Source: Naegleria gruberi
Taxonomy: Eukaryota
Assembly (NCBI GenBank): GCA_000004985.1
Contig: GG738860.1
Reading direction: 5' to 3' (one strand)
DNA length: 64,000 nt
Shown: positions 28,700 to 56,023 of the stretch, piece after piece
Position numbering within the stretch: the stretch's first letter is position 1
How the letters are laid out: each line of letters begins with the position of its first letter
The notes under the pieces: model-generated
Seen by the model: the letters and a program-made list of their open reading frames with translations, nothing else
Database searches by the model: none
What the model was told of the DNA's origin: nothing
Program-made: the position numbers and the translations under genes

Positions 28700-31399
28700 T
28701 TACAAGATAACACAACCACCTCCTCCACCTCCACTGCTACTGGGTCTTGGGATGTTATTAATTTGAGTTCGGAGGTCTTGATTTTGTCTGGTTAGTTCAT
28801 CGAATTTTCTTTGAAATAATTCCTCCTGATTAGAATATTTGGAATGTATTTGAGCAACTTGGGAAGAGTATTCTTTCTTAATTTCTGTTTCTTTTTTGTC
28901 CCATTCCAATTTGAAATGGTTGAGGTCTTGTTCATGAGCTTGTTGCTGCTCTATTAAGGTATGTAAATGTTTTTCATTTTGCAGTTTCATATCTTCTAGT
29001 TCTTGTAAACGAGTAAGTTGTTCTGATTCGAGTTTGGTAATTTCAAGCCTTTGTTGTTCTTGTTCTAACATTTGTATTACCTTTTCGGATTCGTAATCCT
29101 GTAATTTGGATAAATAGTTAGCACATTCGACAGTTAAATTCTCAATATCTTGCAAAAGGTAAGTTCTAACTTGCTCTCTACCTGGACCTTTGCATTGAGC
29201 TTCGAATTGTTTCATTTGTCTTTCAGCCTCTTTCTCTAAATCTTGAACTGTGGCATCGTGGGTTAAAGCTCTAATAAAGAGTGATATATTTTGTTTCATT
29301 TCGGATCGTACTTGCTCGCACAACCTAACAGATTTGTCCATATTGTTACTTTCTATTTGGGATCTCTCTTTTTTAATTAATTCAAACAACTTGTCAGAAT
29401 ATTCTCTCAATATCTTTTCATCTTTTTCAAACATGGAGTCTCTGTTGAATATGTCAAGAATTGTTGCCCATGTTTTTGTGTGTTGTTTACGGATTTCACA
29501 AATTTCATAAATACTGTTACTGTTCAAATGTTTCTTCATTTCCCTTTCGTATAAATTTACACATTTTTCAATTGTCTTATTGTAGGTATTTTCAATTACC
29601 ATTGTAAATTTGTCCTCAATATTAGGAATCATTCCATGTGTTTTAATGGTTTTCAAATATAATAATATTAAAGTAACATAGCGAGTTCCATCTAATAAAC
29701 CTCCATTCATATTTTGTTTTGGTTTAATATTGGATGGAACGAAACTGTTAACAAAAGTAGACATTTCCTTAATGAAGTTAGCATTCAGTAAATGTTCTAC
29801 GTATGGAATATCAGGAACACAACCTGTAGCAGGTGCTTCCATATGATATGTATCAAAAGTTTCAAAAGATTCAATTACTTTTTTTCTTGAATCATTGTTG
29901 CAAACCTTATTCAAAATAAAGGAGGTAAGAGTCTTAAATTCAGCTGGTATATTCAATTTGAAATCTCTGAACAACCAAATACATCTTGGTTTCATATAAC
30001 TATTGCACTCCGTATTGTTTTGATTGGATGATTTCAATTGAATGTTTTGAGTGAATCTGGTGGTAATTTCAAGTGTCTCCATACTACTTGCTGTAGGACA
30101 AGTTGTGGTATTATAAATAAACAGAGATGATAGTAATACACTTAGAATCATAATGTGATTATCATCAGAAGCGTTAGCAGATGCTGCATCAACACCTTCA
30201 GTGTCTATCAATAAAACTTTCAATTTCTGATTGCCGTAGACCATTTCAATTGGCTCTGACCATATCCAAATTCCAAATGTTTTAGCTTCTACTGTGTGTC
30301 CTAAATGAAAGCTATCTGCAGGAACATTATCACCAACTAATCTACTAAGAGAGTATGATTTACCTTCCCTTGTTCTTCCAGCAAGTACAATTGCTCCAAT
30401 AGGCTCCTTGATATTTTTGATTATGTCAAGAGCTTGTTTCTGGAAGATTAAACCCTCTCTACGTCCGTTCTCTGATAACAGAATGTATTGACCATTGGGA
30501 GTGACCACCATATTTTTAGGAAGTAAGAGAGGAATTGCTTTACCGTGGAGTTTAACAACTTGAAAAGCAGGGTTTTGGGATGAGTTGTCTCCAGCAAATA
30601 CTAAAAGACCCCAATCGCCAAAATAATCCACGTTAACAACAATATTGTTTTCCATACAGAGGTAAATACTTTGATTTGTTGTAATATTTTCTCCAACATG
30701 ACATTGTCCATAAATGGTAAAGGTAGCATAATTTTTTTGATAATAGCCATTCTCAACTTCAAATCTATTAACATTTGGTGAAAGTACTAACTTTCTATGG
30801 ACTCTTGAAGAATAGATAAATACTGTATCTCCAGATTTAACAATACCATCTTTTGATTGATCATTAGCATTTACAAAATACAGTAGATCGTTTTCAGCAG
30901 AAAAGTGAGGGAGAGCTACTAATACATTTTGCTCCTTCAATCCCACATATAGATTGGTATTTGAGTTCATGATGGCTACTGGCTCTTTGTAAAATAAATT
31001 AGTATCTTTACACTTTTCAACAAATGGATCAAATATGCTATCTGAAACTAAATCAGGGTCTGCTTCCATTTCTTTAAGAATATCCTTTGAAGAGTTTGGT
31101 ACTTTGGAATCATTATCTATGGGTTGATCAAAGTCCATGTCAAGATAACTGAATGATTCGGCCAAATCTTCGAGACTATCATTAATAGCTTTTCTTTCTG
31201 AAGTATGAATGAAAGTGTAATATTCAATGGCGTCTTCAAGATGACCCATGCTATTTTGGATGGCTTCAAACACTAAATTCAAATCCGACAAATCCATTTC
31301 TATCATTCTCCAGAATGTTGAGGTGGCTAAATCGCAAGCTTCTTTTCCATACTCCTCAAAGTGTTTCTCGATTTTATCCAATACTGTGTGGTGATCCAT
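28700..31399 (-). CDS. guanylate-binding-protein (GBP)-like large GTPase, paralog 1: ~330-aa N-terminal extension + GBP GTPase domain + coiled coil + Gly run + CaaX (CVIL)
   Basis: AIVLAGRTREGKSYSLSRL (P-loop), EAKTFGIWIW (GBP TKGIW signature), LLIDTEGVD (G3), then ...HIMILSVLLSSLFIYNT. The C-terminus is ...RPSSSGGGGGGCVIL*, which is prenylatable. Confidence 0.8.
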   Translation of the reverse strand: MDHHTVLDKIEKHFEEYGKEACDLATSTFWRMIEMDLSDLNLVFEAIQNSMGHLEDAIEYYTFIHTSERKAINDSLEDLAESFSYLDMDFDQPIDNDSKVPNSSKDILKEMEADPDLVSDSIFDPFVEKCKDTNLFYKEPVAIMNSNTNLYVGLKEQNVLVALPHFSAENDLLYFVNANDQSKDGIVKSGDTVFIYSSRVHRKLVLSPNVNRFEVENGYYQKNYATFTIYGQCHVGENITTNQSIYLCMENNIVVNVDYFGDWGLLVFAGDNSSQNPAFQVVKLHGKAIPLLLPKNMVVTPNGQYILLSENGRREGLIFQKQALDIIKNIKEPIGAIVLAGRTREGKSYSLSRLVGDNVPADSFHLGHTVEAKTFGIWIWSEPIEMVYGNQKLKVLLIDTEGVDAASANASDDNHIMILSVLLSSLFIYNTTTCPTASSMETLEITTRFTQNIQLKSSNQNNTECNSYMKPRCIWLFRDFKLNIPAEFKTLTSFILNKVCNNDSRKKVIESFETFDTYHMEAPATGCVPDIPYVEHLLNANFIKEMSTFVNSFVPSNIKPKQNMNGGLLDGTRYVTLILLYLKTIKTHGMIPNIEDKFTMVIENTYNKTIEKCVNLYEREMKKHLNSNSIYEICEIRKQHTKTWATILDIFNRDSMFEKDEKILREYSDKLFELIKKERSQIESNNMDKSVRLCEQVRSEMKQNISLFIRALTHDATVQDLEKEAERQMKQFEAQCKGPGREQVRTYLLQDIENLTVECANYLSKLQDYESEKVIQMLEQEQQRLEITKLESEQLTRLQELEDMKLQNEKHLHTLIEQQQAHEQDLNHFKLEWDKKETEIKKEYSSQVAQIHSKYSNQEELFQRKFDELTRQNQDLRTQINNIPRPSSSGGGGGGCVIL

Positions 31400-31482
31400 C
31401 TAAATAGTTTTTTGTTGTTGGGTTGAAAAATTCTAAATTGTTTTCTCTTTTAAATTGCAAGCACCATCCGTTTTAATCAACA

Positions 31483-31559
31483 AAACGTGATTGTAGACTC
31501 AAATAAGTAACACTCATCACGTTTTACTAAACGAACAATACAACAGGGCGATCACGTTT
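31483..31559. promoter_or_regulatory. recurrent AAACGTGAT / ATCACGTTT motif cluster in the 5' region of GBP paralog 1
   Basis: AAACGTGAT sits at 31483-31491. Its reverse complement ATCACGTTT sits at 31516-31524 and again at 31551-31559 (GCGATCACGTTTC). The same 9-mer pair recurs as a palindrome upstream of the other two GBP genes. Confidence 0.35.
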
Positions 31560-31625
31560 CAGCATTTTTTAATATTTTTATTATTTTCAATTTTAAATTA
31601 AATGTGTTTAAATAATTATATTTAT

Positions 31626-34154
31626 TTACAAAATATTACAAAAACCAGATGATCTATTATTCATATTTGCAAGACTACTGGTTAGATTAGAAATTTGTCT
31701 TGAACTATCAGCAGATTGTTGTTGTAAAACATTAATCATTTGAGTCATTCTTTGTTCGGATTGAGCTTGCTGTTGAGTAAACATTTGATTCATATTTTGG
31801 AGATTTTCCTTATGTTCAAAGAGGAGTCTTTCTTGGAGTTCTTGCATTTTCTTCTTTTCATCATTTGATGCAGCAAGCATTTCTTTTTGGAATTCTTTGA
31901 TTTTGTCCATTGTTTCCTTGTATAATTCTTCTTTGGCTTTTTCAGATTGTTCGAGGTTTTCTAATTGCTGTCTGACTTTTGCAGTTTCTTGTTGGATGGC
32001 TTGATTTTTCAGTCGTTGTTGAATCAAATCTTCCTTGTAGCTCTTAACTTTCTTCAACTTGTTTTTATCTAATTCACTTCTTTCTTCAAAGAAGGTTTTA
32101 AGTACTTCAGTCTTGGCTGGTCCTTTTGCTCTCTGATCGTATAATTTACCAATCTGATCAAAGACAAGCTCAATATCTTCCATTGACTTGTTCTCAATAT
32201 CATTTTCAAGAGATTCAACTGCTTGTTTGTGAAGAGAGGAGATTATCTCATGACATTGCTTTCTAGATACTTCACGATTCTTCAAAAAGAAAGAGTGAAT
32301 TAAACCTCCAGTGATATTGCCAGACTTATCTGTGGTCATGAATGAATTTGCCAATTTTTCAAACTCCTTCTTGATAACATCTTCATCGGTAAAGACAACA
32401 TTTTGGGAAAATCTTTTTCCCAATGTTGCAATAATGTTTCCATGAATTTCCAATAGTTCAGTATGCTCAATAGGCAAAGGGCATTCAACGATCTTTTCAT
32501 TCATCATGGTAGTGTACAATTCAGGGAGTAGTTGCTCTTCCTTTCTGAGTGATGTTTCAGAAATGAGAGAAATTGGATCAGAGAATGAAGGAACCATTCC
32601 AGGAGTATTCAACTTGAAAATATAATTGAACAATACTACTGGCAAATGATCTATTGTCATTTGAGCCTTTGATCCATGTTTGTTGTGGAAATATTTTGGT
32701 GGTGCATTTTGAACAATTTCATAAACGACCTGTTCCACCTTTTGCAAGAACTCTGGGTTCAGATAATGCCAATAATCTGCAATGGAGGTAAGAATTTGGG
32801 TACTGACATGTGGAGGTGGAATAGTATCATATCTCCTGTTTTGGAAATACATGACGATATCCCTAACAATATTATCCAATTGGTCATCTCCACGTTTAAG
32901 AATTTCTCTTTCCATGTAGCTGTCAAGAGTCTGGCCATATGGAAGTTGTAAAAACACGTCCCTCATTATCCAGTGGAAAAATGGTGAATAGGAGCCTTTC
33001 TCCAAACTAAGGGTTTCAGCAATTTTGGATACAAATGACAAATGGTGCAAGTCAGATCTTTTTGGTGAGCTTTGTGAGTTGTAAACAAAGTAAGATGAAA
33101 TCAAAACTGAAAGAATTAAGAGCAAGTAATCATTATCATTTGAAGCGTCAGTTGAGTTCATGCCTTCACAGTCCAAAACGAGCAACAAAGTCTCTTTTCC
33201 TTCAACAAGAGAGCAAGACATCCAGATTCCTTTGGTTTTAGCAATCACTTCATTACCCAATTCAAATGCAGTAAAAGTTCTGTCATTAATCAATCGACAT
33301 GACAAGAGACTTTTACCTAATCTCATAGGTCCTGATACAGTTACGATACCAATAGGAATTTTGCCAAAATTCTTGACCATTGTTCTTATAGCCTGAACTG
33401 ATTCTCTGACGAGATACAATCTATCAGGAGCTCTACAATTGGAATCAACGAGACCAGTTTGAGGATTGACATATCCTTCACTTCCATTCAATTTCACCAT
33501 TTGACTTGTTTGTGGATCAAAGTAGTGATCTGTAAATTGAACAAGAGGAATACTTTTCATGCCCTCTAGGGGAAAACTTTCGCCTTCATCAAAAAACTCC
33601 TCGTCCTTAACATATTCAGGGATTGATTCAATACTAATTGGTCTAGTATCACCTCTCGTAGTGGCTCTTTTAGTTACTGTTTGAGGAAATGATCTTGGAA
33701 TACTTGGTGAAGGTCGTATATGGGCTCTCCTTTCAAATTGGTCAGAGTGCTGAGAATTGTTACCAACAAAACCTGGAGAAAATTGATACATTGGCTGTGG
33801 ATTATTTTGAAATGGATTCACATTGAAGTATTGGTAAGGAGGAAGATGATTACCAAATGAAACAGGAGTGCTAGCTCCATCAAATGTTGATTCTGGTAAA
33901 TAAGCTTGTCCAGTAACTTCATGTTGTTGAGGATTTCCAAACGCCATGGGATAGAATCCATTGTTTACATTATTGTTCATTTGTGGTTGAGGAATAATAT
34001 AACGTGGAAATGGCATTTGAGAATTGTAATAGGACGGAACACCAACCGAGAAATCACTCATTTGAGAGTTTGGAGTGGTCGTTCTTGGACAATAGTTTGA
34101 ATCTCCCTTATTGCTTTGCATTGTTTTTTTTGTTTTACTTGCAGAAATGATCAT
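31626..34154 (-). CDS. GBP-like large GTPase, paralog 2: Q/N/P-rich prion-like N-terminus + GBP GTPase domain + helical/coiled-coil domain + CaaX (CNIL)
   Basis: IGIVTVSGPMRLGKSLLSCRL (canonical G..R.GKS P-loop), AKTKGIWM, LVLDCEGM, ILSVLISSYFVYNS. The C-terminus is ...NNRSSGFCNIL* (CaaL box; human GBP2 ends CNIL). The first ATG in frame is at 34154 (the ORF track starts at a TTG at 34163). Confidence 0.8.
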   Translation of the reverse strand: MIISASKTKKTMQSNKGDSNYCPRTTTPNSQMSDFSVGVPSYYNSQMPFPRYIIPQPQMNNNVNNGFYPMAFGNPQQHEVTGQAYLPESTFDGASTPVSFGNHLPPYQYFNVNPFQNNPQPMYQFSPGFVGNNSQHSDQFERRAHIRPSPSIPRSFPQTVTKRATTRGDTRPISIESIPEYVKDEEFFDEGESFPLEGMKSIPLVQFTDHYFDPQTSQMVKLNGSEGYVNPQTGLVDSNCRAPDRLYLVRESVQAIRTMVKNFGKIPIGIVTVSGPMRLGKSLLSCRLINDRTFTAFELGNEVIAKTKGIWMSCSLVEGKETLLLVLDCEGMNSTDASNDNDYLLLILSVLISSYFVYNSQSSPKRSDLHHLSFVSKIAETLSLEKGSYSPFFHWIMRDVFLQLPYGQTLDSYMEREILKRGDDQLDNIVRDIVMYFQNRRYDTIPPPHVSTQILTSIADYWHYLNPEFLQKVEQVVYEIVQNAPPKYFHNKHGSKAQMTIDHLPVVLFNYIFKLNTPGMVPSFSDPISLISETSLRKEEQLLPELYTTMMNEKIVECPLPIEHTELLEIHGNIIATLGKRFSQNVVFTDEDVIKKEFEKLANSFMTTDKSGNITGGLIHSFFLKNREVSRKQCHEIISSLHKQAVESLENDIENKSMEDIELVFDQIGKLYDQRAKGPAKTEVLKTFFEERSELDKNKLKKVKSYKEDLIQQRLKNQAIQQETAKVRQQLENLEQSEKAKEELYKETMDKIKEFQKEMLAASNDEKKKMQELQERLLFEHKENLQNMNQMFTQQQAQSEQRMTQMINVLQQQSADSSRQISNLTSSLANMNNRSSGFCNIL

Positions 34155-34228
34155 ATCAGACAAAACGTGTGAGTGTATTATGCTTCATCTCATTACACGT
34201 TTCGATTTCAGGTTTGTAATAATAGAGT

Positions 34229-34248
34229 AAACGTGATCCATCACGTTT
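34229..34248. promoter_or_regulatory. perfect palindrome AAACGTGAT-CC-ATCACGTTT in the 170-bp divergent promoter between GBP paralogs 2 and 3
   Basis: aaacgtgatccatcacgttt: 9-nt arms, 2-nt spacer. Two further half-site variants sit at 34163-34170 (AAACGTGT) and 34195-34202 (ACACGTTT) in the same intergenic region. Confidence 0.4.
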
Positions 34249-34323
34249 GGTATTAAAGTGGTTTCAATTTTAAAGTAATTAAAGCCAGCTCTAGCTTTAC
34301 TATAATGCAATAATTAAAAAACA

Positions 34324-36759
34324 ATGCAATCTGCTAAACCTCTCATATTATTCAAAAGCTCTGTTAATGGAGAATTAAATTCATCTGATTGTGGTGAACC
34401 TTTTCTGGTTCAAGAAACAGTCAATGAATTACTACAATTGACCGATTTACTCAACAAACCAGTCAAGGTAATTGGAGTATGTGGTCCAAAGAGGGCTGCT
34501 AAAACTTCTCTTGCCAATTATCTTGCTCAATCTGTATCATTTGAAGTTGGACATTCAATTGAGTCCAAAACAAAGGGTATTTGGTTGTTTGTAGTTGATA
34601 AACAAGATCATTCCTTAATCATTTTGGATTCTGAGGGTTTTGATGAAGCCTCAACTGCCCAAGATCAACTCTTGTTCATTATCCTGTACTTTTTGTGTTC
34701 CCTCCTTGTTTTCAATACCAGTCATGTGCCAACAAGACAAAATGTTCAAGATTTACAATTTCTAGCCGAATTTAAATCCAAGCTACTTGTATCTGAAGCT
34801 TCAACCCATAACAAATCTGTTCATCCAACCTTCTTGAATTCATTTGGTCCAAACTTTTTATGGTTGATTAGGGATAAATTCTTGAATATTCCCAACGAAT
34901 TTCAAGACATGGAAGATTTCATGTTGAGAGTAGTCCTGGCAAAATCAAATGATGGAAAGGATCATTTGAGAGAAAACATTCTCACCATCTTCAATAGAGT
35001 CTTCTTTGATTTTTTACCTGTACCTGGAGAGCCATCATTCCAGTCAAAATTGGAACATGTTACAATGAATGTTATTTTGGCTAATGTTCCATTAAAAAAA
35101 TTGGTCAATCCTGAAGATATTGGCGATAGAGAAAGTGTTACTTTGGAAACATTCCTTAAATTGGTTGAACTTGTTATTCATCAAATGACTCGAACTCTTA
35201 ACAAGATTCCAGTAATTGACAATATTTTTCATACCATCACCTCCAATAAGGAAATTTACAATTTAAAACGTGCCGTTCAAGTATACGTTGATCACATGAG
35301 CAGGGAACTTGATGATATTGACCCAGTTGACTATGACATATTCACTGAAATAGATAAGCAAGCTGTTGCTAAGGCAACCAAAACCTATTTTGAAGGAATT
35401 CCATCTTCAACTGCAGATTCGAATAGATTACTTTCTGATCTCATGCAAAAGAAGAAGAGTTTCATTGACGACCAAAATGAAAAATCCAAAACATATTGTA
35501 CCTCTCTCATCAAACAATTGTACTCGAAAATGGTTGCTCCCCAAGTAAAACAGTTAATGAATGTCAGAGGTGATATTTCCATGTTGCTTGACACTATTGA
35601 TAAATTCAAGAAGGAATACCATTCGAAAGCTAAAGGAAACATGGCAGTCTCTGTTTTGAATGGCTATTATAATCATCATATTACTAAGGATTTGAATAAT
35701 TTGAGTTCAATAAGAGAGTATGAAGAGAATGTGAAGAATATTAAGGAAGAATTTTCTCACAACTTGGTTCAGTTGAAGGAAGCTGAAAAATCTCTTGTCA
35801 CATTTGAGAACAATATTTCTCAAAATACAAACTATCAACAAATGCTAGAAATGCAAACAAAACTGCAATCTGAACTCTTTAAAGAAGTGATGATTGCTCA
35901 GAGGGAATCACAAGCTAATACTCTAGTCTCCATTGATATGCTCTCAAAGAGTATGCATGACTCTCAGAGACAAGCTCTTAGCATGTATTCTGCAATGCAA
36001 CAATCTCAGCAACAAGCACAAACTCAACAATTAGCTCTCGTTCTAGAGCATAATAGAATTGCAAGTGAGCAACTTAATCAAGCAATGGAAAAAACTACTC
36101 AAGCAGTAATTCAGTATAATGCCAATAGAGAAGATGATTCTTTTTTGGGAAAGGTTGGAAAGATTGGTTTAATAGTTGGTTTAGGTGCTTTGGCACCTGC
36201 ATTGGGTGCCATTCCACATGTTGGATCTGTCCTCTCTGCAACAGCTACAGGAATGAGTGCAGTTATGGGAAAGCAATTGCTCGGACAAGAATATGACCCA
36301 AGACTAATTCAAACCAATACTACTCCTACTCCTCCAAAGGTTAGTCATAGTCCATCAGTCAATCGAGACTCCTTATTATCTCAATTCACAACCAATGCTC
36401 TCTCACAACAAGTGCATCCACAAAATCAACAAGTAACCAACAGCCATCAACCAAGAGCTGTTGTTAGCCAGCTGCCAAGAAAGAATCCTATTGTGCAACC
36501 TCAAAAATCTTCAATCACAGAGTCCACAAAATATGAATTGGGTGGAGAGTTTAAACAAGTTGGCCTCAATGGATCTTATTCCAATACTGTTACAAAAGAT
36601 ATGTTTCCTTATGGCTGTCAATGGGGATGTGGACGTGAAAATGTTTGTTCAAAGCCAGGCCATTCATGTGGAAGACCATCATGCAATGAGGAAAGAAATA
36701 AGAAATCCTATTTCAAAGGCACACTTGGTGTAATGTCAACAACAAGAAACAAGTTGTGA
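34324..36759 (+). CDS. GBP-like large GTPase, paralog 3 (divergent: degenerate P-loop, Gly-rich hydrophobic segment, Cys-rich C-terminus, no CaaX)
   Basis: VKVIGVCGPKRAAKTSLANYL (P-loop with AKT in place of GKS), ESKTKGIWLF, LIILDSEGFD, LFIILYFLCSLLVFNTS. Downstream is a helical domain, then GKVGKIGLIVGLGALAPALGAIPHVGSVLSATATGMSAVMG (glycine-zipper/TM-like) and a Cys-rich tail YGCQWGCGRENVCSKPGHSCGRPSCNEE. Confidence 0.7.
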   Translation: MQSAKPLILFKSSVNGELNSSDCGEPFLVQETVNELLQLTDLLNKPVKVIGVCGPKRAAKTSLANYLAQSVSFEVGHSIESKTKGIWLFVVDKQDHSLIILDSEGFDEASTAQDQLLFIILYFLCSLLVFNTSHVPTRQNVQDLQFLAEFKSKLLVSEASTHNKSVHPTFLNSFGPNFLWLIRDKFLNIPNEFQDMEDFMLRVVLAKSNDGKDHLRENILTIFNRVFFDFLPVPGEPSFQSKLEHVTMNVILANVPLKKLVNPEDIGDRESVTLETFLKLVELVIHQMTRTLNKIPVIDNIFHTITSNKEIYNLKRAVQVYVDHMSRELDDIDPVDYDIFTEIDKQAVAKATKTYFEGIPSSTADSNRLLSDLMQKKKSFIDDQNEKSKTYCTSLIKQLYSKMVAPQVKQLMNVRGDISMLLDTIDKFKKEYHSKAKGNMAVSVLNGYYNHHITKDLNNLSSIREYEENVKNIKEEFSHNLVQLKEAEKSLVTFENNISQNTNYQQMLEMQTKLQSELFKEVMIAQRESQANTLVSIDMLSKSMHDSQRQALSMYSAMQQSQQQAQTQQLALVLEHNRIASEQLNQAMEKTTQAVIQYNANREDDSFLGKVGKIGLIVGLGALAPALGAIPHVGSVLSATATGMSAVMGKQLLGQEYDPRLIQTNTTPTPPKVSHSPSVNRDSLLSQFTTNALSQQVHPQNQQVTNSHQPRAVVSQLPRKNPIVQPQKSSITESTKYELGGEFKQVGLNGSYSNTVTKDMFPYGCQWGCGRENVCSKPGHSCGRPSCNEERNKKSYFKGTLGVMSTTRNKL

Positions 36760-36923
36760 ACAGATAGTAGCTCTATGGTTGTTAGTAAAATTGGTAATAA
36801 ATAACTTATTTGTTTATTATTCACATTATTAGGGTTAGGGATTTAGGGTGTTATTGTCATTAGAAAACACAATGTTGCTCGATAGAGTGTTGTTACAATT
36901 GACTATTTACATGTTATGAAACT

Positions 36924-51813: not shown

Positions 51814-52003
51814 TTTTTTTTGTATTTGGATGAAATTTAGGCGCCAAATTTTGGTACGAAAATGTAAAGAGTTTGGCGCCAAGGATTTCCTGAATCAATA
51901 ACAATGAAAATGGAAAATTATTTTCATCATTCAAGTGTTCTGAATGAATTTGTTGTTTTTTCCACTTTCACAAGTTTGAAAATGTAATGATTACAACAAT
52001 ATT

Positions 52004-52744
52004 TTACATGCATAATGTAAAATACAATAATACTAGTAAGGTGATCAAAGTTGTAGTACCTCCTGATAGACTTGAATGTAGTGTCATTGAATTGCCTGTA
52101 CACATGACAGAATCTGCCATATCAAAACTCTTCCAAGAACCTTGATAAACTCTATTAATTCCATTACTTGTTGATAGACATCTAAAATCTATCAACTCTC
52201 TCGAGTTACAACTTGCATAATAATTCTCACACGAGGACATGCAGAGATTGTAAATTTGTGTTGACTCGTCCCTACTCACATCACATAGTGGAAAGAAGTG
52301 TTGACAAATGTAACGTCTTGCTGCATTGTAGCACTGACTTTTTTGAAATAATCCCTTGTGATAGACTTCCGAGTTGAATGATAATAATGCCTGTCTATCA
52401 CTCAATTTTAAATAATCAACAATTGTCAAGTTGTAAGAGTCAAAGGTTGATGAAGAATTGGTGAGTGTTAAATTATTAGATATGCAAATTCGTATCGATT
52501 CGTTGAGTGTCATGTACTCGTTGATAGTTTCCAAGCAGAAAGTTTCGTTTGCATTCGTTTGCGAAATAAAATCATAGAGAAGAGGAGAAGATAGAGAGGT
52601 ACATTCACCCGAACAAGATCCATAGAAATTGTTATTGTTTAATGTTTCCGATTCGTTCATAAGTGTGAACACCAAGAGAATGACAAGAAAGAATGAAGGA
52701 TTTTTCATGTTGTTGGAATTTTTTTTGATTTGTGAATTGGCCAA
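52004..52744 (-). CDS. secreted/GPI-anchored-type Cys-rich protein (signal peptide, many N-glyc sequons, C-terminal hydrophobic tail); possible Frizzled-like CRD
   Basis: The N-terminus MKNPSFFLVILLVFTLMNES is a signal-peptide candidate. There are 14 Cys with spacing ...CQHFFPLC...LCMSSCENYYASC...C..., multiple N.T/N.S sequons, and a C-terminal GGTTTLITLLVLLYFTLCM* (GPI-signal-like). Confidence 0.5.
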   Translation of the reverse strand: MANSQIKKNSNNMKNPSFFLVILLVFTLMNESETLNNNNFYGSCSGECTSLSSPLLYDFISQTNANETFCLETINEYMTLNESIRICISNNLTLTNSSSTFDSYNLTIVDYLKLSDRQALLSFNSEVYHKGLFQKSQCYNAARRYICQHFFPLCDVSRDESTQIYNLCMSSCENYYASCNSRELIDFRCLSTSNGINRVYQGSWKSFDMADSVMCTGNSMTLHSSLSGGTTTLITLLVLLYFTLCM

Positions 52745-52812
52745 TAATTATAATCACCTCAATTTTTGTCTCGAAACGAGGATGTGCTTGCAATTTAAAT
52801 TTTAAAAAAAAA

Positions 52813-53327
52813 ATGATGTCAGCAACAGGAAATCATCATGAACAACAAAATAATGAACAACAGCAGTCGGAAAGAGCCAACCGTAAAAAGATTTTAGATG
52901 CTGTCTTGGAGTATTATTCAGAGGCTTTTTCTATAGAAAAAAGTAACGAGCAAATTAAAAACAAAATGGACCTTTGTTTACCGAAACATGTCTGTAAGCG
53001 TATTTCATTTAAATTATTGAAAACAGGAGCAAATATAAATTCCATTAGTGAGAAAGTTTTGAAAATTCCAAAAAAAGAAAAGAAAATTGAAAATCATGAA
53101 GAAGTGCTTCTTTCCCAAGCAGACTTGGATGATTTTAATAAGGAACCAACACAACATGACACTGAGGAGAAAAAAAAACAAATAATGGAGTATACTGAGC
53201 AGTATGTTCAGAAAAAGTCACAGAGTGTGCTTTCACAGATGGATAGTATTACTTTTCCCAAAAAGATTAGAGCAAGACTTGATCAAATTTCTAATATTAT
53301 TGCTAAAACCTGTATTCATCTAGAAGA
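52813..53327 (+). CDS. 5' part of a hypothetical gene running into the 1484-N gap
   Basis: ATG at 52813: MMSATGNHHEQQNNEQQQSERANRKKILDAVLEYYSEAF... is open to the gap edge. No family recognised. Confidence 0.4.
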
Positions 53328-54811
53328 NNNNNNNNNNNNNNNNNNNNNNNNNNNNNNNNNNNNNNNNNNNNNNNNNNNNNNNNNNNNNNNNNNNNNNNNN
53401 NNNNNNNNNNNNNNNNNNNNNNNNNNNNNNNNNNNNNNNNNNNNNNNNNNNNNNNNNNNNNNNNNNNNNNNNNNNNNNNNNNNNNNNNNNNNNNNNNNNN
53501 NNNNNNNNNNNNNNNNNNNNNNNNNNNNNNNNNNNNNNNNNNNNNNNNNNNNNNNNNNNNNNNNNNNNNNNNNNNNNNNNNNNNNNNNNNNNNNNNNNNN
53601 NNNNNNNNNNNNNNNNNNNNNNNNNNNNNNNNNNNNNNNNNNNNNNNNNNNNNNNNNNNNNNNNNNNNNNNNNNNNNNNNNNNNNNNNNNNNNNNNNNNN
53701 NNNNNNNNNNNNNNNNNNNNNNNNNNNNNNNNNNNNNNNNNNNNNNNNNNNNNNNNNNNNNNNNNNNNNNNNNNNNNNNNNNNNNNNNNNNNNNNNNNNN
53801 NNNNNNNNNNNNNNNNNNNNNNNNNNNNNNNNNNNNNNNNNNNNNNNNNNNNNNNNNNNNNNNNNNNNNNNNNNNNNNNNNNNNNNNNNNNNNNNNNNNN
53901 NNNNNNNNNNNNNNNNNNNNNNNNNNNNNNNNNNNNNNNNNNNNNNNNNNNNNNNNNNNNNNNNNNNNNNNNNNNNNNNNNNNNNNNNNNNNNNNNNNNN
54001 NNNNNNNNNNNNNNNNNNNNNNNNNNNNNNNNNNNNNNNNNNNNNNNNNNNNNNNNNNNNNNNNNNNNNNNNNNNNNNNNNNNNNNNNNNNNNNNNNNNN
54101 NNNNNNNNNNNNNNNNNNNNNNNNNNNNNNNNNNNNNNNNNNNNNNNNNNNNNNNNNNNNNNNNNNNNNNNNNNNNNNNNNNNNNNNNNNNNNNNNNNNN
54201 NNNNNNNNNNNNNNNNNNNNNNNNNNNNNNNNNNNNNNNNNNNNNNNNNNNNNNNNNNNNNNNNNNNNNNNNNNNNNNNNNNNNNNNNNNNNNNNNNNNN
54301 NNNNNNNNNNNNNNNNNNNNNNNNNNNNNNNNNNNNNNNNNNNNNNNNNNNNNNNNNNNNNNNNNNNNNNNNNNNNNNNNNNNNNNNNNNNNNNNNNNNN
54401 NNNNNNNNNNNNNNNNNNNNNNNNNNNNNNNNNNNNNNNNNNNNNNNNNNNNNNNNNNNNNNNNNNNNNNNNNNNNNNNNNNNNNNNNNNNNNNNNNNNN
54501 NNNNNNNNNNNNNNNNNNNNNNNNNNNNNNNNNNNNNNNNNNNNNNNNNNNNNNNNNNNNNNNNNNNNNNNNNNNNNNNNNNNNNNNNNNNNNNNNNNNN
54601 NNNNNNNNNNNNNNNNNNNNNNNNNNNNNNNNNNNNNNNNNNNNNNNNNNNNNNNNNNNNNNNNNNNNNNNNNNNNNNNNNNNNNNNNNNNNNNNNNNNN
54701 NNNNNNNNNNNNNNNNNNNNNNNNNNNNNNNNNNNNNNNNNNNNNNNNNNNNNNNNNNNNNNNNNNNNNNNNNNNNNNNNNNNNNNNNNNNNNNNNNNNN
54801 NNNNNNNNNNN
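53328..54811. other. assembly gap (1484 N)
   Basis: Run of n. Confidence 1.
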
Positions 54812-55584
54812 ATTTAATTAACAATATGGAAATTAAATATTTAGGATTAAAAAATGAAATTTTTATTTCAATTTTATCACCAACAATTGTGTGGTATGAT
54901 TACTTTGTTTCAAATTATTGTAAAATTTATCCATTAAAAGATTATAAATTAATTTTATTATTAATTATTAAATTATTTATTGATAATTTAAATGGATTAA
55001 AATTATTACATGAATTAAATATTTCACATATTGATTTTAACATTTTAAATTCTAACATAATATTAAATAATTGTTCTGATTTAATTAGTAAATATTTAAA
55101 AGAAAATAATTTACCAACATTTAATATGGTATTAATTGATTTTAATAGTTCAAAATTAGAAAGTCAATTATTATTTACAAATGAATACATTCCAAAAACA
55201 ACACATTATCCTCCTGATTATAAATTATATTATGATAATATAAAACCAAATATATCATTTACAAAAGCACATGATATTTATTCATTATCTATTGTAATGA
55301 TTCAATATATTAACATTTTGATTAATTGTTATGGGAATAATTGCTTTCAAATGAAATCAAATACTATTAGATATATAAATCAATCACATAGAAACAAAGA
55401 CGAACCATTCAATATTGATTTTAATATTTTAAATTTTAATATTTTAAATAGTTTTGAAAAGGAAATTTTTAATGAATTATTTGAAATGATAAGAGAAATG
55501 AATTTAAACCCTTGGAAAATTATTAATGAAAAAGATTATTGTTTACAACAATTAGAAAAATTACAAAATAATGTATTGAATTAG
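54812..55584 (+). CDS. extremely AT-rich protein-kinase-like C-lobe fragment (possible pseudokinase); 5' end lost in gap
   Basis: It is open from the gap edge to TAG at 55582-55584. LHELNISHIDFNILNSNIIL (HRD-region-like with HID), LIDFNSS (DFG-like DFN), PPDYKLYYDN (APE-like), DIYSLSIVM (DIWSLG-like). Composition is about 85% A+T versus about 65-70% elsewhere. Confidence 0.35.
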
Positions 55585-56023
55585 AATATTTCTGATACAT
55601 CTTCTTCATCACCTATAATTAATAGTGAAATGAAAAATTCACATCAAATGAAACAATGATATTGTCAAATGATTCTTTTTTCCTCAAATTTAATAGTCTC
55701 CCAATATAATCACTTTTGGCAACTTGTATTCCCTAAATATCATTGTCAATTATAATATTTCATTTCACCACAGAAGAGATTTTCTAAAAAATCAATTTTC
55801 TCATCAATTAAATTCCTAATTGTTCAATTTTTACGATATGTTTCCGATAAAATTGAAGAATTTGTTTCCAATAGAATGTATCTATTGCGATACGATTGTA
55901 AGTTGATTTGTTGATCAATAAAATGTTTCGAATATGTTTTAATTAGAGGTAATTAAAGGAAATATTTCGGTTTGTAATCCTGAGGAAAACTAAAAGTTTC
56001 TTATAAATATTGGAAATCAAAAA

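Follow-up and report, generated by a model that had tools for sequence, protein, structure and literature searches.

A GBP-family gene of Naegleria gruberi with a P-loop alanine and a putative membrane hairpin, in a cluster of three GBP genes that share a promoter motif

We analysed a stretch of 64,000 nucleotides (the window) of contig GG738860.1 from the Naegleria gruberi assembly GCA_000004985.1, and in particular the plus-strand open reading frame (ORF) at 34324..36759, which encodes 811 amino acids (aa) and is here called GBP-3. An earlier annotation, made from the letters of the window and hereafter called the original prediction, had described this gene as a membrane-anchored pseudo-GTPase of the guanylate-binding protein (GBP) family. 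We found that GBP-3 is a bona fide GBP-family large GTPase gene under purifying selection, and that in its P-loop the glycine before the lysine is replaced by alanine. With moderate confidence, we propose that it encodes a weakened, still nucleotide-responsive GTPase, the anchor-type member of an ancestral cluster of three GBP genes that look co-regulated. That GBP-3 is a dead pseudo-GTPase is not shown by its sequence, which would support that description in part.

The GBP-3 protein is 100% identical to N. gruberi XP_002678754.1 (EFC46010.1; NAEGRDRAFT_48045; UniProt D2VAU5), a record labelled only "predicted protein". The gene model is real and already public, and its host is the heterolobosean amoeboflagellate N. 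gruberi. Pfam searches identified the GBP G domain PF02263 (E-value 1e-19, 71 bits, cut-off 21.1) and the helical GBP_C domain PF02841 (E-value 2e-9, 37.8 bits, cut-off 24.3), and both domains are also found in the two upstream minus-strand ORFs, GBP-1 and GBP-2. An AlphaFold2 model built on 51 sequences reached a predicted local distance difference test score (pLDDT) above 85 over most of aa 30-470 and contained a long terminal helix, aa 441-600. When this model was searched with Foldseek, the top PDB matches were human GBP1, GBP2 and GBP5 (target-normalised TM-score 0.66-0.79), with the atlastins next, and a PDB sequence search with GBP-3 matched the same three human proteins (hGBP1/2/5). 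The large GTPase (G) domain covers approximately aa 30-290 (34411..35193, plus strand), as delimited by Pfam, by the PDB alignment and by AlphaFold with pLDDT mostly above 85, and it is followed by the helical GBP_C-type domain (35194..36123, plus strand), which includes the long terminal helix. With both Pfam domains present and hGBP1/2/5 as the closest structures, the assignment to the GBP family made in the original prediction holds. It had also stated that GBP-3 has no CaaX box, and this is correct, since the protein ends in TTRNKL, as compared with CVIL in GBP-1 and CNIL in GBP-2. We found no hidden intron in the GBP-3 ORF (no AT-rich dips, no GTAAG donors) and no downstream CaaX exon, as no reading in any frame before the next gene ends in a CaaX box.

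The P-loop of GBP-3 reads G54-P-K-R57-A-A59-K60-T61 and is encoded at 34483..34506 on the plus strand by the codons GGT CCA AAG AGG GCT GCT AAA ACT, within the string GVCGPKRAAKTS that the original prediction had singled out. This string had been taken to show altered spacing, which is not the case: HMMER aligned GPKRAAKT without gaps to GLYRTGKS of hGBP1, and MAFFT aligned it without gaps to GPMRLGKS of GBP-2 and GRTREGKS of GBP-1, so that G54-x4-A59-K60-T61 matches the G-x4-G-K-S of the human protein and of both paralogs. Judged from these alignments, the spacing is canonical, the sole non-conservative change is Gly59 to Ala before the Lys, and S61T is conservative. The other part of the claim, that AKT replaces GKS/T, was borne out as A59-K60-T61. 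Among 174 aligned GBP P-loops, comprising the 150 best family representatives and the paralogs, the position before the Lys is Gly in 172, and Ala occurs only in the two N. gruberi sequences. Three further residues of the GBP-3 P-loop, K56, A58 and T61, are likewise unusual for this sample.

Outside this position, the G domain is largely intact. GBP-3 keeps 23 of the 28 G-domain positions whose conservation in the family sample is 85% or higher, the five deviations being G59A, S61T, L120I, L123F and S125C; GBP-1 and GBP-2 deviate at two positions each, which are non-catalytic. The residues kept in GBP-3 include the Arg finger R57, K60, the switch I T83, D102, E104 and G105 of the DxxG motif, and R183 and D184 of the RD motif. 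Taken as motifs, the GBP-type set (GxxRxGKS, switch I Thr, DxEG and RD) is present except for G59A and S61T. AlphaFold modelled the P-loop as a canonical beta1-loop-alpha1 unit (pLDDT 90-93), a geometry that is weak evidence because AlphaFold is insensitive to single substitutions.

The Gly-to-Ala change in GBP-3 is no sequencing error, because an independent contig has the same codons. This metagenome contig (L003, ERZ929261), from an N. gruberi-like strain, is 97% identical at the DNA level to the GBP-3 region; its P-loop codons are GCT GCT AAA ACT, and its promoter is also the same. Over 429 comparable codons, GBP-3 and the L003 copy differ by 14 synonymous and 8 non-synonymous changes, which corresponds to a ratio of non-synonymous to synonymous rates (dN/dS) of 0.146. 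The original prediction had named a Lys/Ser in an intact pocket and a sequence error as points that would refute it. Because the P-loop Lys and a Ser/Thr are present in GBP-3 and sequence error is excluded, the label "pseudo-GTPase" is a hypothesis that rests on one residue.

Small GTPases bind nucleotide very tightly and depend on guanine nucleotide exchange factors (GEFs), unlike GBPs, which bind nucleotide weakly and exchange it spontaneously without a GEF. The substitution found in GBP-3 is identical, in residue and in Walker A position, to Ras G15A, Rac1 G15A and RhoA G17A. A reduced nucleotide affinity of GBP-3 is probable because Rac1 G15A and RhoA G17A serve in experiments as nucleotide-free forms (PMC3608494), and the consequence in GBP-3 may differ in degree from that in small GTPases. 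We favour a weakened GTPase over a dead pseudo-GTPase because the other catalytic residues are kept and because GBPs are normally weak, GEF-independent binders.

The relatives of GBP-3 were found by an exhaustive phmmer search. Word-indexed homolog searches with the full-length protein and with aa 1-470 returned only a clam GBP and a 279-aa strain fragment, and the same type of search with the tail (aa 596-811) gave no match. The closest full-length relatives, at 25-27% identity, are P0003 (715 aa), from a metagenome, and P0004 (771 aa), which is KAL9647966.1 of Willaertia magna. P0003 lies on a 9.1-kb metagenome contig (L004) from another heterolobosean that bears all three GBP classes: P0003 is transcribed divergently from a GBP-2-like gene with a CaaX box, and a 912-aa GBP-1-like gene ending in CTIQ comes next. 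Reciprocal best scores and a neighbour-joining tree paired the three N. gruberi proteins (Ng1 to Ng3) with the three on this contig (X1 to X3) as Ng1-X1, Ng2-X2 and Ng3-X3. From this pairing and the shared synteny it follows that the three-GBP cluster is older than the split of the two lineages, and that P0003 is the positional ortholog of GBP-3; the W. magna protein is not clustered with other GBPs. Like GBP-3, both P0003 and P0004 lack a CaaX box and carry a hydrophobic Pro-turn segment in the same overall architecture, and P0003 is also divergent from a CaaX GBP. They differ from GBP-3 in having neither the long linker nor the Cys-rich module described below, and in their canonical GxxxxGKS P-loops, GLKRCGKS in P0003 and GPMRTGKS in P0004. 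Because these two P-loops are canonical, we regard the Ala as derived in the N. gruberi lineage. A metagenome scan with the GBP-3-class alignment returned only two distant GBPs with canonical P-loops and no further orthologs.

The feature that sets this class apart from its prenylated neighbours is a hydrophobic Gly/Ala-rich segment at aa 607-654 (36142..36285, plus strand), directly after the terminal helix, which we annotate as a putative membrane hairpin. Its uncharged core, aa 614-649, spans 36 residues between K613 and K650 and contains 7 Gly, 7 Ala, 2 Pro and 1 His. At its centre lies the turn P625-x-L-G-x-I-P631-x-V-G634, which is also conserved in P0003 and in the W. magna protein and gives the three-protein consensus (S/A)P-x-L-(G/A)-x-(I/T)-P-x-(V/L)-G. 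The segment has a low hydrophobic moment. AlphaFold run on the tail alone produced, at low confidence, a helix at 607-621, a break at the prolines and a second helix at 634-647. The original prediction had called this region a glycine-zipper hydrophobic segment; the hydrophobic stretch is there, at aa 607-654, and the zipper is not, as GxxxGxxxG is absent and the single GxxxG is G615-G619. The small-xxx-small triplets are confined to the weakly hydrophobic second half of the segment. Transmembrane (TM) prediction on the glycine-rich segment gave a marginal result only. A monotopic hairpin with both flanks in the cytosol would most likely fit the segment best, by comparison with known anchors. 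We rejected a single-pass TM helix or tail anchor, given an apparent free energy of insertion (deltaG-app) of +4.8 kcal/mol, two Pro and one His in the middle of the segment, and the 163 residues that follow it.

That GBP-3 is membrane-anchored is plausible by analogy with the Dictyostelium GBP. This protein has no CaaX box, carries a predicted C-terminal TM segment and is localised to the endoplasmic reticulum (ER), with both termini accessible to protease (PMC12040241, PMC8565484). A membrane-anchored GBP as such is therefore already known. Compared by description, the D. discoideum GBP (Gnbp, DDB_G0281639, Q54TN9) resembles GBP-3 as a protist GBP without a CaaX box, with a C-terminal hydrophobic segment and an extended helical part, and its topology, with both termini cytosolic (PMC12040241), is the one we propose for GBP-3. 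In contrast to GBP-3, it reportedly retains a conserved P-loop and is the sole GBP of its genome, whereas N. gruberi has at least three GBPs, of which only GBP-3 is of the anchor type. About a dozen further family representatives have hydrophobic C-termini, including one from a lungfish and one from a euglenid. The closest structural relatives outside the GBPs, Atlastin and Sey1 (RHD3), also combine a cytosolic G domain with a C-terminal hydrophobic hairpin anchor. Both differ from GBP-3 in their two clear TM helices and in a middle domain built as a three-helix bundle; GBP-3 has the GBP_C domain and one marginal 36-residue segment.

The upstream regions of the three genes share a sequence motif. 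GBP-2 and GBP-3 are transcribed divergently from a 202-bp intergenic region (34122..34323) with AAACGTG at 34163(+), 34196(-), 34229(+) and 34242(-); these two inverted pairs agree with the palindromic promoter of the original prediction. The 226-bp region upstream of GBP-1 (31400..31625) contains three AAACGTGAT sites at 31483+, 31518- and 31553-, 35 bp apart. Seven of the 10 AAACGTG sites of the 64-kb window fall within these 428 bp of GBP upstream DNA (Poisson P ~1e-12), as do all five window copies of the exact AAACGTGAT. The AAACGTG(AT) motif (31483-31559 and 34163-34248) occurs in both orientations, with spacings of 35/35 bp and 33/33/13 bp, and its AAACGTG sites are unaltered in the L003 strain. 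The cluster on L004 shares a different element, TATCACAAA, found four times between the divergent genes and once or twice ahead of X1 (within L004 2759-2945 and 7960-7982); its core ATCAC is also found in the reverse complement of the N. gruberi motif. Judging from its distribution, AAACGTG(AT) is likely to act as a cis-regulatory element common to the three GBP genes, and co-regulation of the three paralogs is a reasonable inference. Sharing of a promoter motif says nothing about the catalytic competence of GBP-3. In addition, AAAAAACAATGCAA forms a perfect 14-nt inverted repeat over the start codons of GBP-2 and GBP-3 (34116-34129 and 34316-34329), and both proteins start with MQSxK.

Our model suggests that GBP-1 and GBP-2 would be targeted through their CaaX prenylation boxes, and the GBP-3 class through the Gly/Ala-rich segment with its double-proline turn. 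This segment would most likely embed GBP-3 constitutively in an endomembrane as a hairpin whose two ends face the cytosol. Only on the branch to N. gruberi did the Gly that precedes the P-loop Lys, invariant in the rest of the family sample, change to Ala, and the other nucleotide-binding and catalytic residues were retained. We hypothesize that Ala59 weakens nucleotide binding or speeds up exchange and changes the GTPase kinetics, yielding a weak GTPase prone to the nucleotide-free state and not a fully degenerate pseudoenzyme. Any partnership with the prenylated paralogs might use the conserved G-domain dimer interface. The role of decoy or heterodimerising partner that the original prediction had proposed for GBP-3 is pure inference.

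Several observations weigh against this model. The segment is marginal as a TM helix, with a Kyte-Doolittle 19-residue maximum of 1.72, a Wimley-White octanol value of -1.8 kcal/mol and a Hessa deltaG-app of +4.8 kcal/mol, and AlphaFold assigns it a pLDDT of 30-56. The GBP-3 class is the fastest-evolving of the three, as G-domain identity is 32% for Ng3-X3 and 46-47% for classes 1 and 2 between the same two taxa. Homolog searches and the metagenome scan retrieved no ortholog from other Naegleria species, so the Gly-to-Ala change is undatable within the genus. In the L003 copy, 25 nt are deleted between ATTC repeats (window 35155-35179; L003 ~1426-1434), which shifts the GBP-3 frame after residue 277 and leads to a stop after 279, with the downstream part still 98% identical as protein. 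If real, this deletion argues that GBP-3 is dispensable; it is seen in a single contig and may be an assembly artefact. Finally, Ala59 could abolish nucleotide binding fully, or it could be tolerated.

We tentatively entertain the first of these outcomes, in which GBP-3 would be a true pseudo-GTPase regulator: Ala59 abolishes binding, and the anchored protein restrains or recruits the prenylated GBP-1 and GBP-2. Gly is invariant in the other P-loops (172/172), the same substitution leaves Rac1 and RhoA nucleotide-free, in mutants that serve to pull down GEFs (PMC3608494), K56, A58 and T61 add to the unusual character of the loop, and the promoter motif suggests co-regulation with the CaaX paralogs. 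Set against this, the G motifs hold one non-conservative change, with the Lys, Thr, Arg finger, switch I Thr, DxxG and RD all kept, and since GBP binding is weak and GEF-free, a lower affinity need not empty the pocket at cellular GTP levels. Substitution rates were compared by Tajima relative-rate tests. With W. magna outgroups, the G domain of Ng3 has more changes than that of X3 (39 vs 21 and 42 vs 25; P 0.02-0.04), and the helical domain shows no such excess. However, the excess vanishes with GBP-2-class outgroups, and Ng2 against X2 has a similar N. gruberi bias (35 vs 22). The outcome of these tests varies with the outgroup chosen and is not decisive; their support for a relaxation specific to the GBP-3 G domain appears weak at most.

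Two known systems provide precedents for such a regulator. Arabidopsis GBPL1 is a proposed catalytically impaired GBP-family paralog that regulates (sequesters) the active GBPL3 (PMC10473214). GBPL1 works within nuclear condensates by way of a disordered region and has no membrane anchor, whereas GBP-3 keeps all catalytic residues but one. The IRGM (GMS) proteins of the mouse are P-loop-variant endomembrane paralogs that hold the GKS IRGs inactive on self membranes (PMC2532785, PMC3681737). They differ from GBP-3 in belonging to another GTPase family and in replacing Lys by Met instead of Gly by Ala, and GMS proteins still bind nucleotide.

The opposite outcome, a fully competent GTPase, we consider unlikely. 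The Ala would then be tolerated, either neutral or mildly adaptive, and GBP-3 would be an ordinary endomembrane-resident GBP like its orthologs and the Dictyostelium protein. Such a reading draws on the conservation of all the other catalytic residues, on purifying selection (dN/dS 0.15), on the canonical P-loops of orthologs with the same architecture and on the canonical P-loop geometry in AlphaFold (pLDDT 90-93). The last of these counts for little, given the insensitivity of AlphaFold to single substitutions, and the reading has to contend with the absence of any other Ala in 172 diverse GBP P-loops and with the strong loss of nucleotide affinity caused by Gly-to-Ala at this position in small GTPases (PMC3608494).

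We regard as distinctly unlikely a guard/effector arrangement, drawn by analogy, in which an anchored GBP-3 unable to hold nucleotide would mark "self" membranes and keep the co-expressed GBP-1 and GBP-2 inactive, or recruit them, such a system having evolved independently in this free-living heterolobosean amoeba. Were this true, immune dynamin-like GTPases would have come under the control of a P-loop-variant paralog either long ago or repeatedly by convergence. Highly unlikely, in our view, is a gene on its way to loss, with constraint eased once a mutation had disabled the P-loop and with the ORF of strain NEG-M intact only by recency: the frameshifted L003 copy, which stops after aa 279, and the rank of GBP-3 as the fastest-evolving class would fit it, but dN/dS is 0.13-0.18 on either side of the deletion, the deletion is known from one metagenome contig and is perhaps an assembly artefact, the 811-codon ORF is intact in an AT-rich genome, and the Cys-rich tail is 70% identical in amino acids in another organism, with largely synonymous DNA differences.

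This tail forms the remainder of the protein. A linker rich in S, T, P and Q (aa 655-759; 36286..36600, plus strand) is predicted to be disordered and is absent from P0003 and P0004. It leads into a Cys-rich module (aa 760-803; 36601..36732, plus strand) of the form C-x3-C-x5-C-x6-C-x4-C with His780, its five Cys being residues 765, 769, 775, 782 and 787; this module is also absent from both relatives. The original prediction had seen a C-terminal Cys-rich knot here: the five clustered Cys are real, and a knot is not supported by AlphaFold, whose pLDDT is ~30-45 over the whole tail. When the tail was modelled alone, the mean pLDDT was 44, with ~40 for the Cys module. Pfam searches of the tail with E-values up to 10 gave only Di19_C (0.17) and a PSI fragment (0.026), both below the cut-offs. 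A stand-alone 50-aa ORF with 70% identity to the module occurs on two eukaryotic metagenome contigs (L001 6344-6496 and L002 1534-1686) and shares the stretch FPYGCQWGCxRENVCSKPGxSCGRPxCN; on inspection, the DNA differences are largely synonymous. The stand-alone ORF has a stop two codons upstream and an RPS6e gene nearby. Eight GBP queries found no GBP body upstream of it on L001, and none within 6 kb, and we therefore rejected it as a sign of a GBP-3 ortholog on that contig. The Cys-rich unit looks like an independent small module acquired by N. gruberi GBP-3. The linker and the module together are a lineage-specific addition, for which zinc binding and S-acylation are guesses at a role. At the very end of the protein, the sequence NKL is common to GBP-3 (TTRNKL; window 36754-36756) and the W. 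magna protein (QRNNKL), and P0003 ends in ENK; the shared ending may reflect a conserved signal at the C-terminus or mere chance.

Human GBP1, GBP2 and GBP5 are interferon-induced and CaaX-prenylated and are ~19-20% identical to GBP-3. They resemble it in the two-domain fold, the P-loop spacing, the Arg finger, the Lys, the switch I Thr, DxxG and RD, and in forming a clustered multigene family. GBP-3 departs from them in the Ala before the Lys, the lack of a CaaX box, the hydrophobic segment, the 160-aa tail with its Cys module and a longer terminal helix.

GBPs are central to cell-autonomous immunity in animals and in Dictyostelium they were recently reported to restrict Legionella. Naegleria, a bacterivorous amoeboflagellate, belongs to a very distant eukaryotic lineage; its GBPs are uncharacterised, and our literature search found no paper on them. 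A conserved cluster with two prenylated GBPs and one anchored GBP would offer a compact system for studying how GBP targeting evolves, by lipid tail or by fixed anchor. The natural Gly-to-Ala variant would likewise help to decide whether regulatory paralogs with impaired nucleotide binding arise again and again in GBP families. If Ala59 is neutral, GBP-3 is an ordinary paralog.

The two neighbouring paralogs lie on the minus strand. GBP-2 (31626..34121, 831 aa from the ATG at 34121) has the canonical P-loop GPMRLGKS and the CaaX box CNIL, and GBP-1 (28700..31399, 899 aa) has the canonical P-loop GRTREGKS and the CaaX box CVIL. The ORF list, made with the bacterial code, sets the start of GBP-2 too far upstream, at a TTG (34163). 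Both proteins carry long extensions N-terminal of the G domain, ~290 aa in GBP-1 and ~220 aa in GBP-2, and GBP-3 is without one. Q, N and P abound in the GBP-2 extension; that of GBP-1 is kept in its L004 ortholog, where the alignment spans nearly the full length.

The window as a whole is AT-rich (~34% GC) and gene-dense, and its long ORFs are apparently uninterrupted. The interval 52000-56000 is extremely AT-rich (GC 0.12-0.22), and the long ORFs there (52732-55584+ and 53316-54824-) look spurious and of low complexity. GBP-3 and the next gene converge, and the short stretch that separates their 3' ends contains a telomere-like run, TTAGGGTTAGGGATTTAGGG, at 36829-36848.

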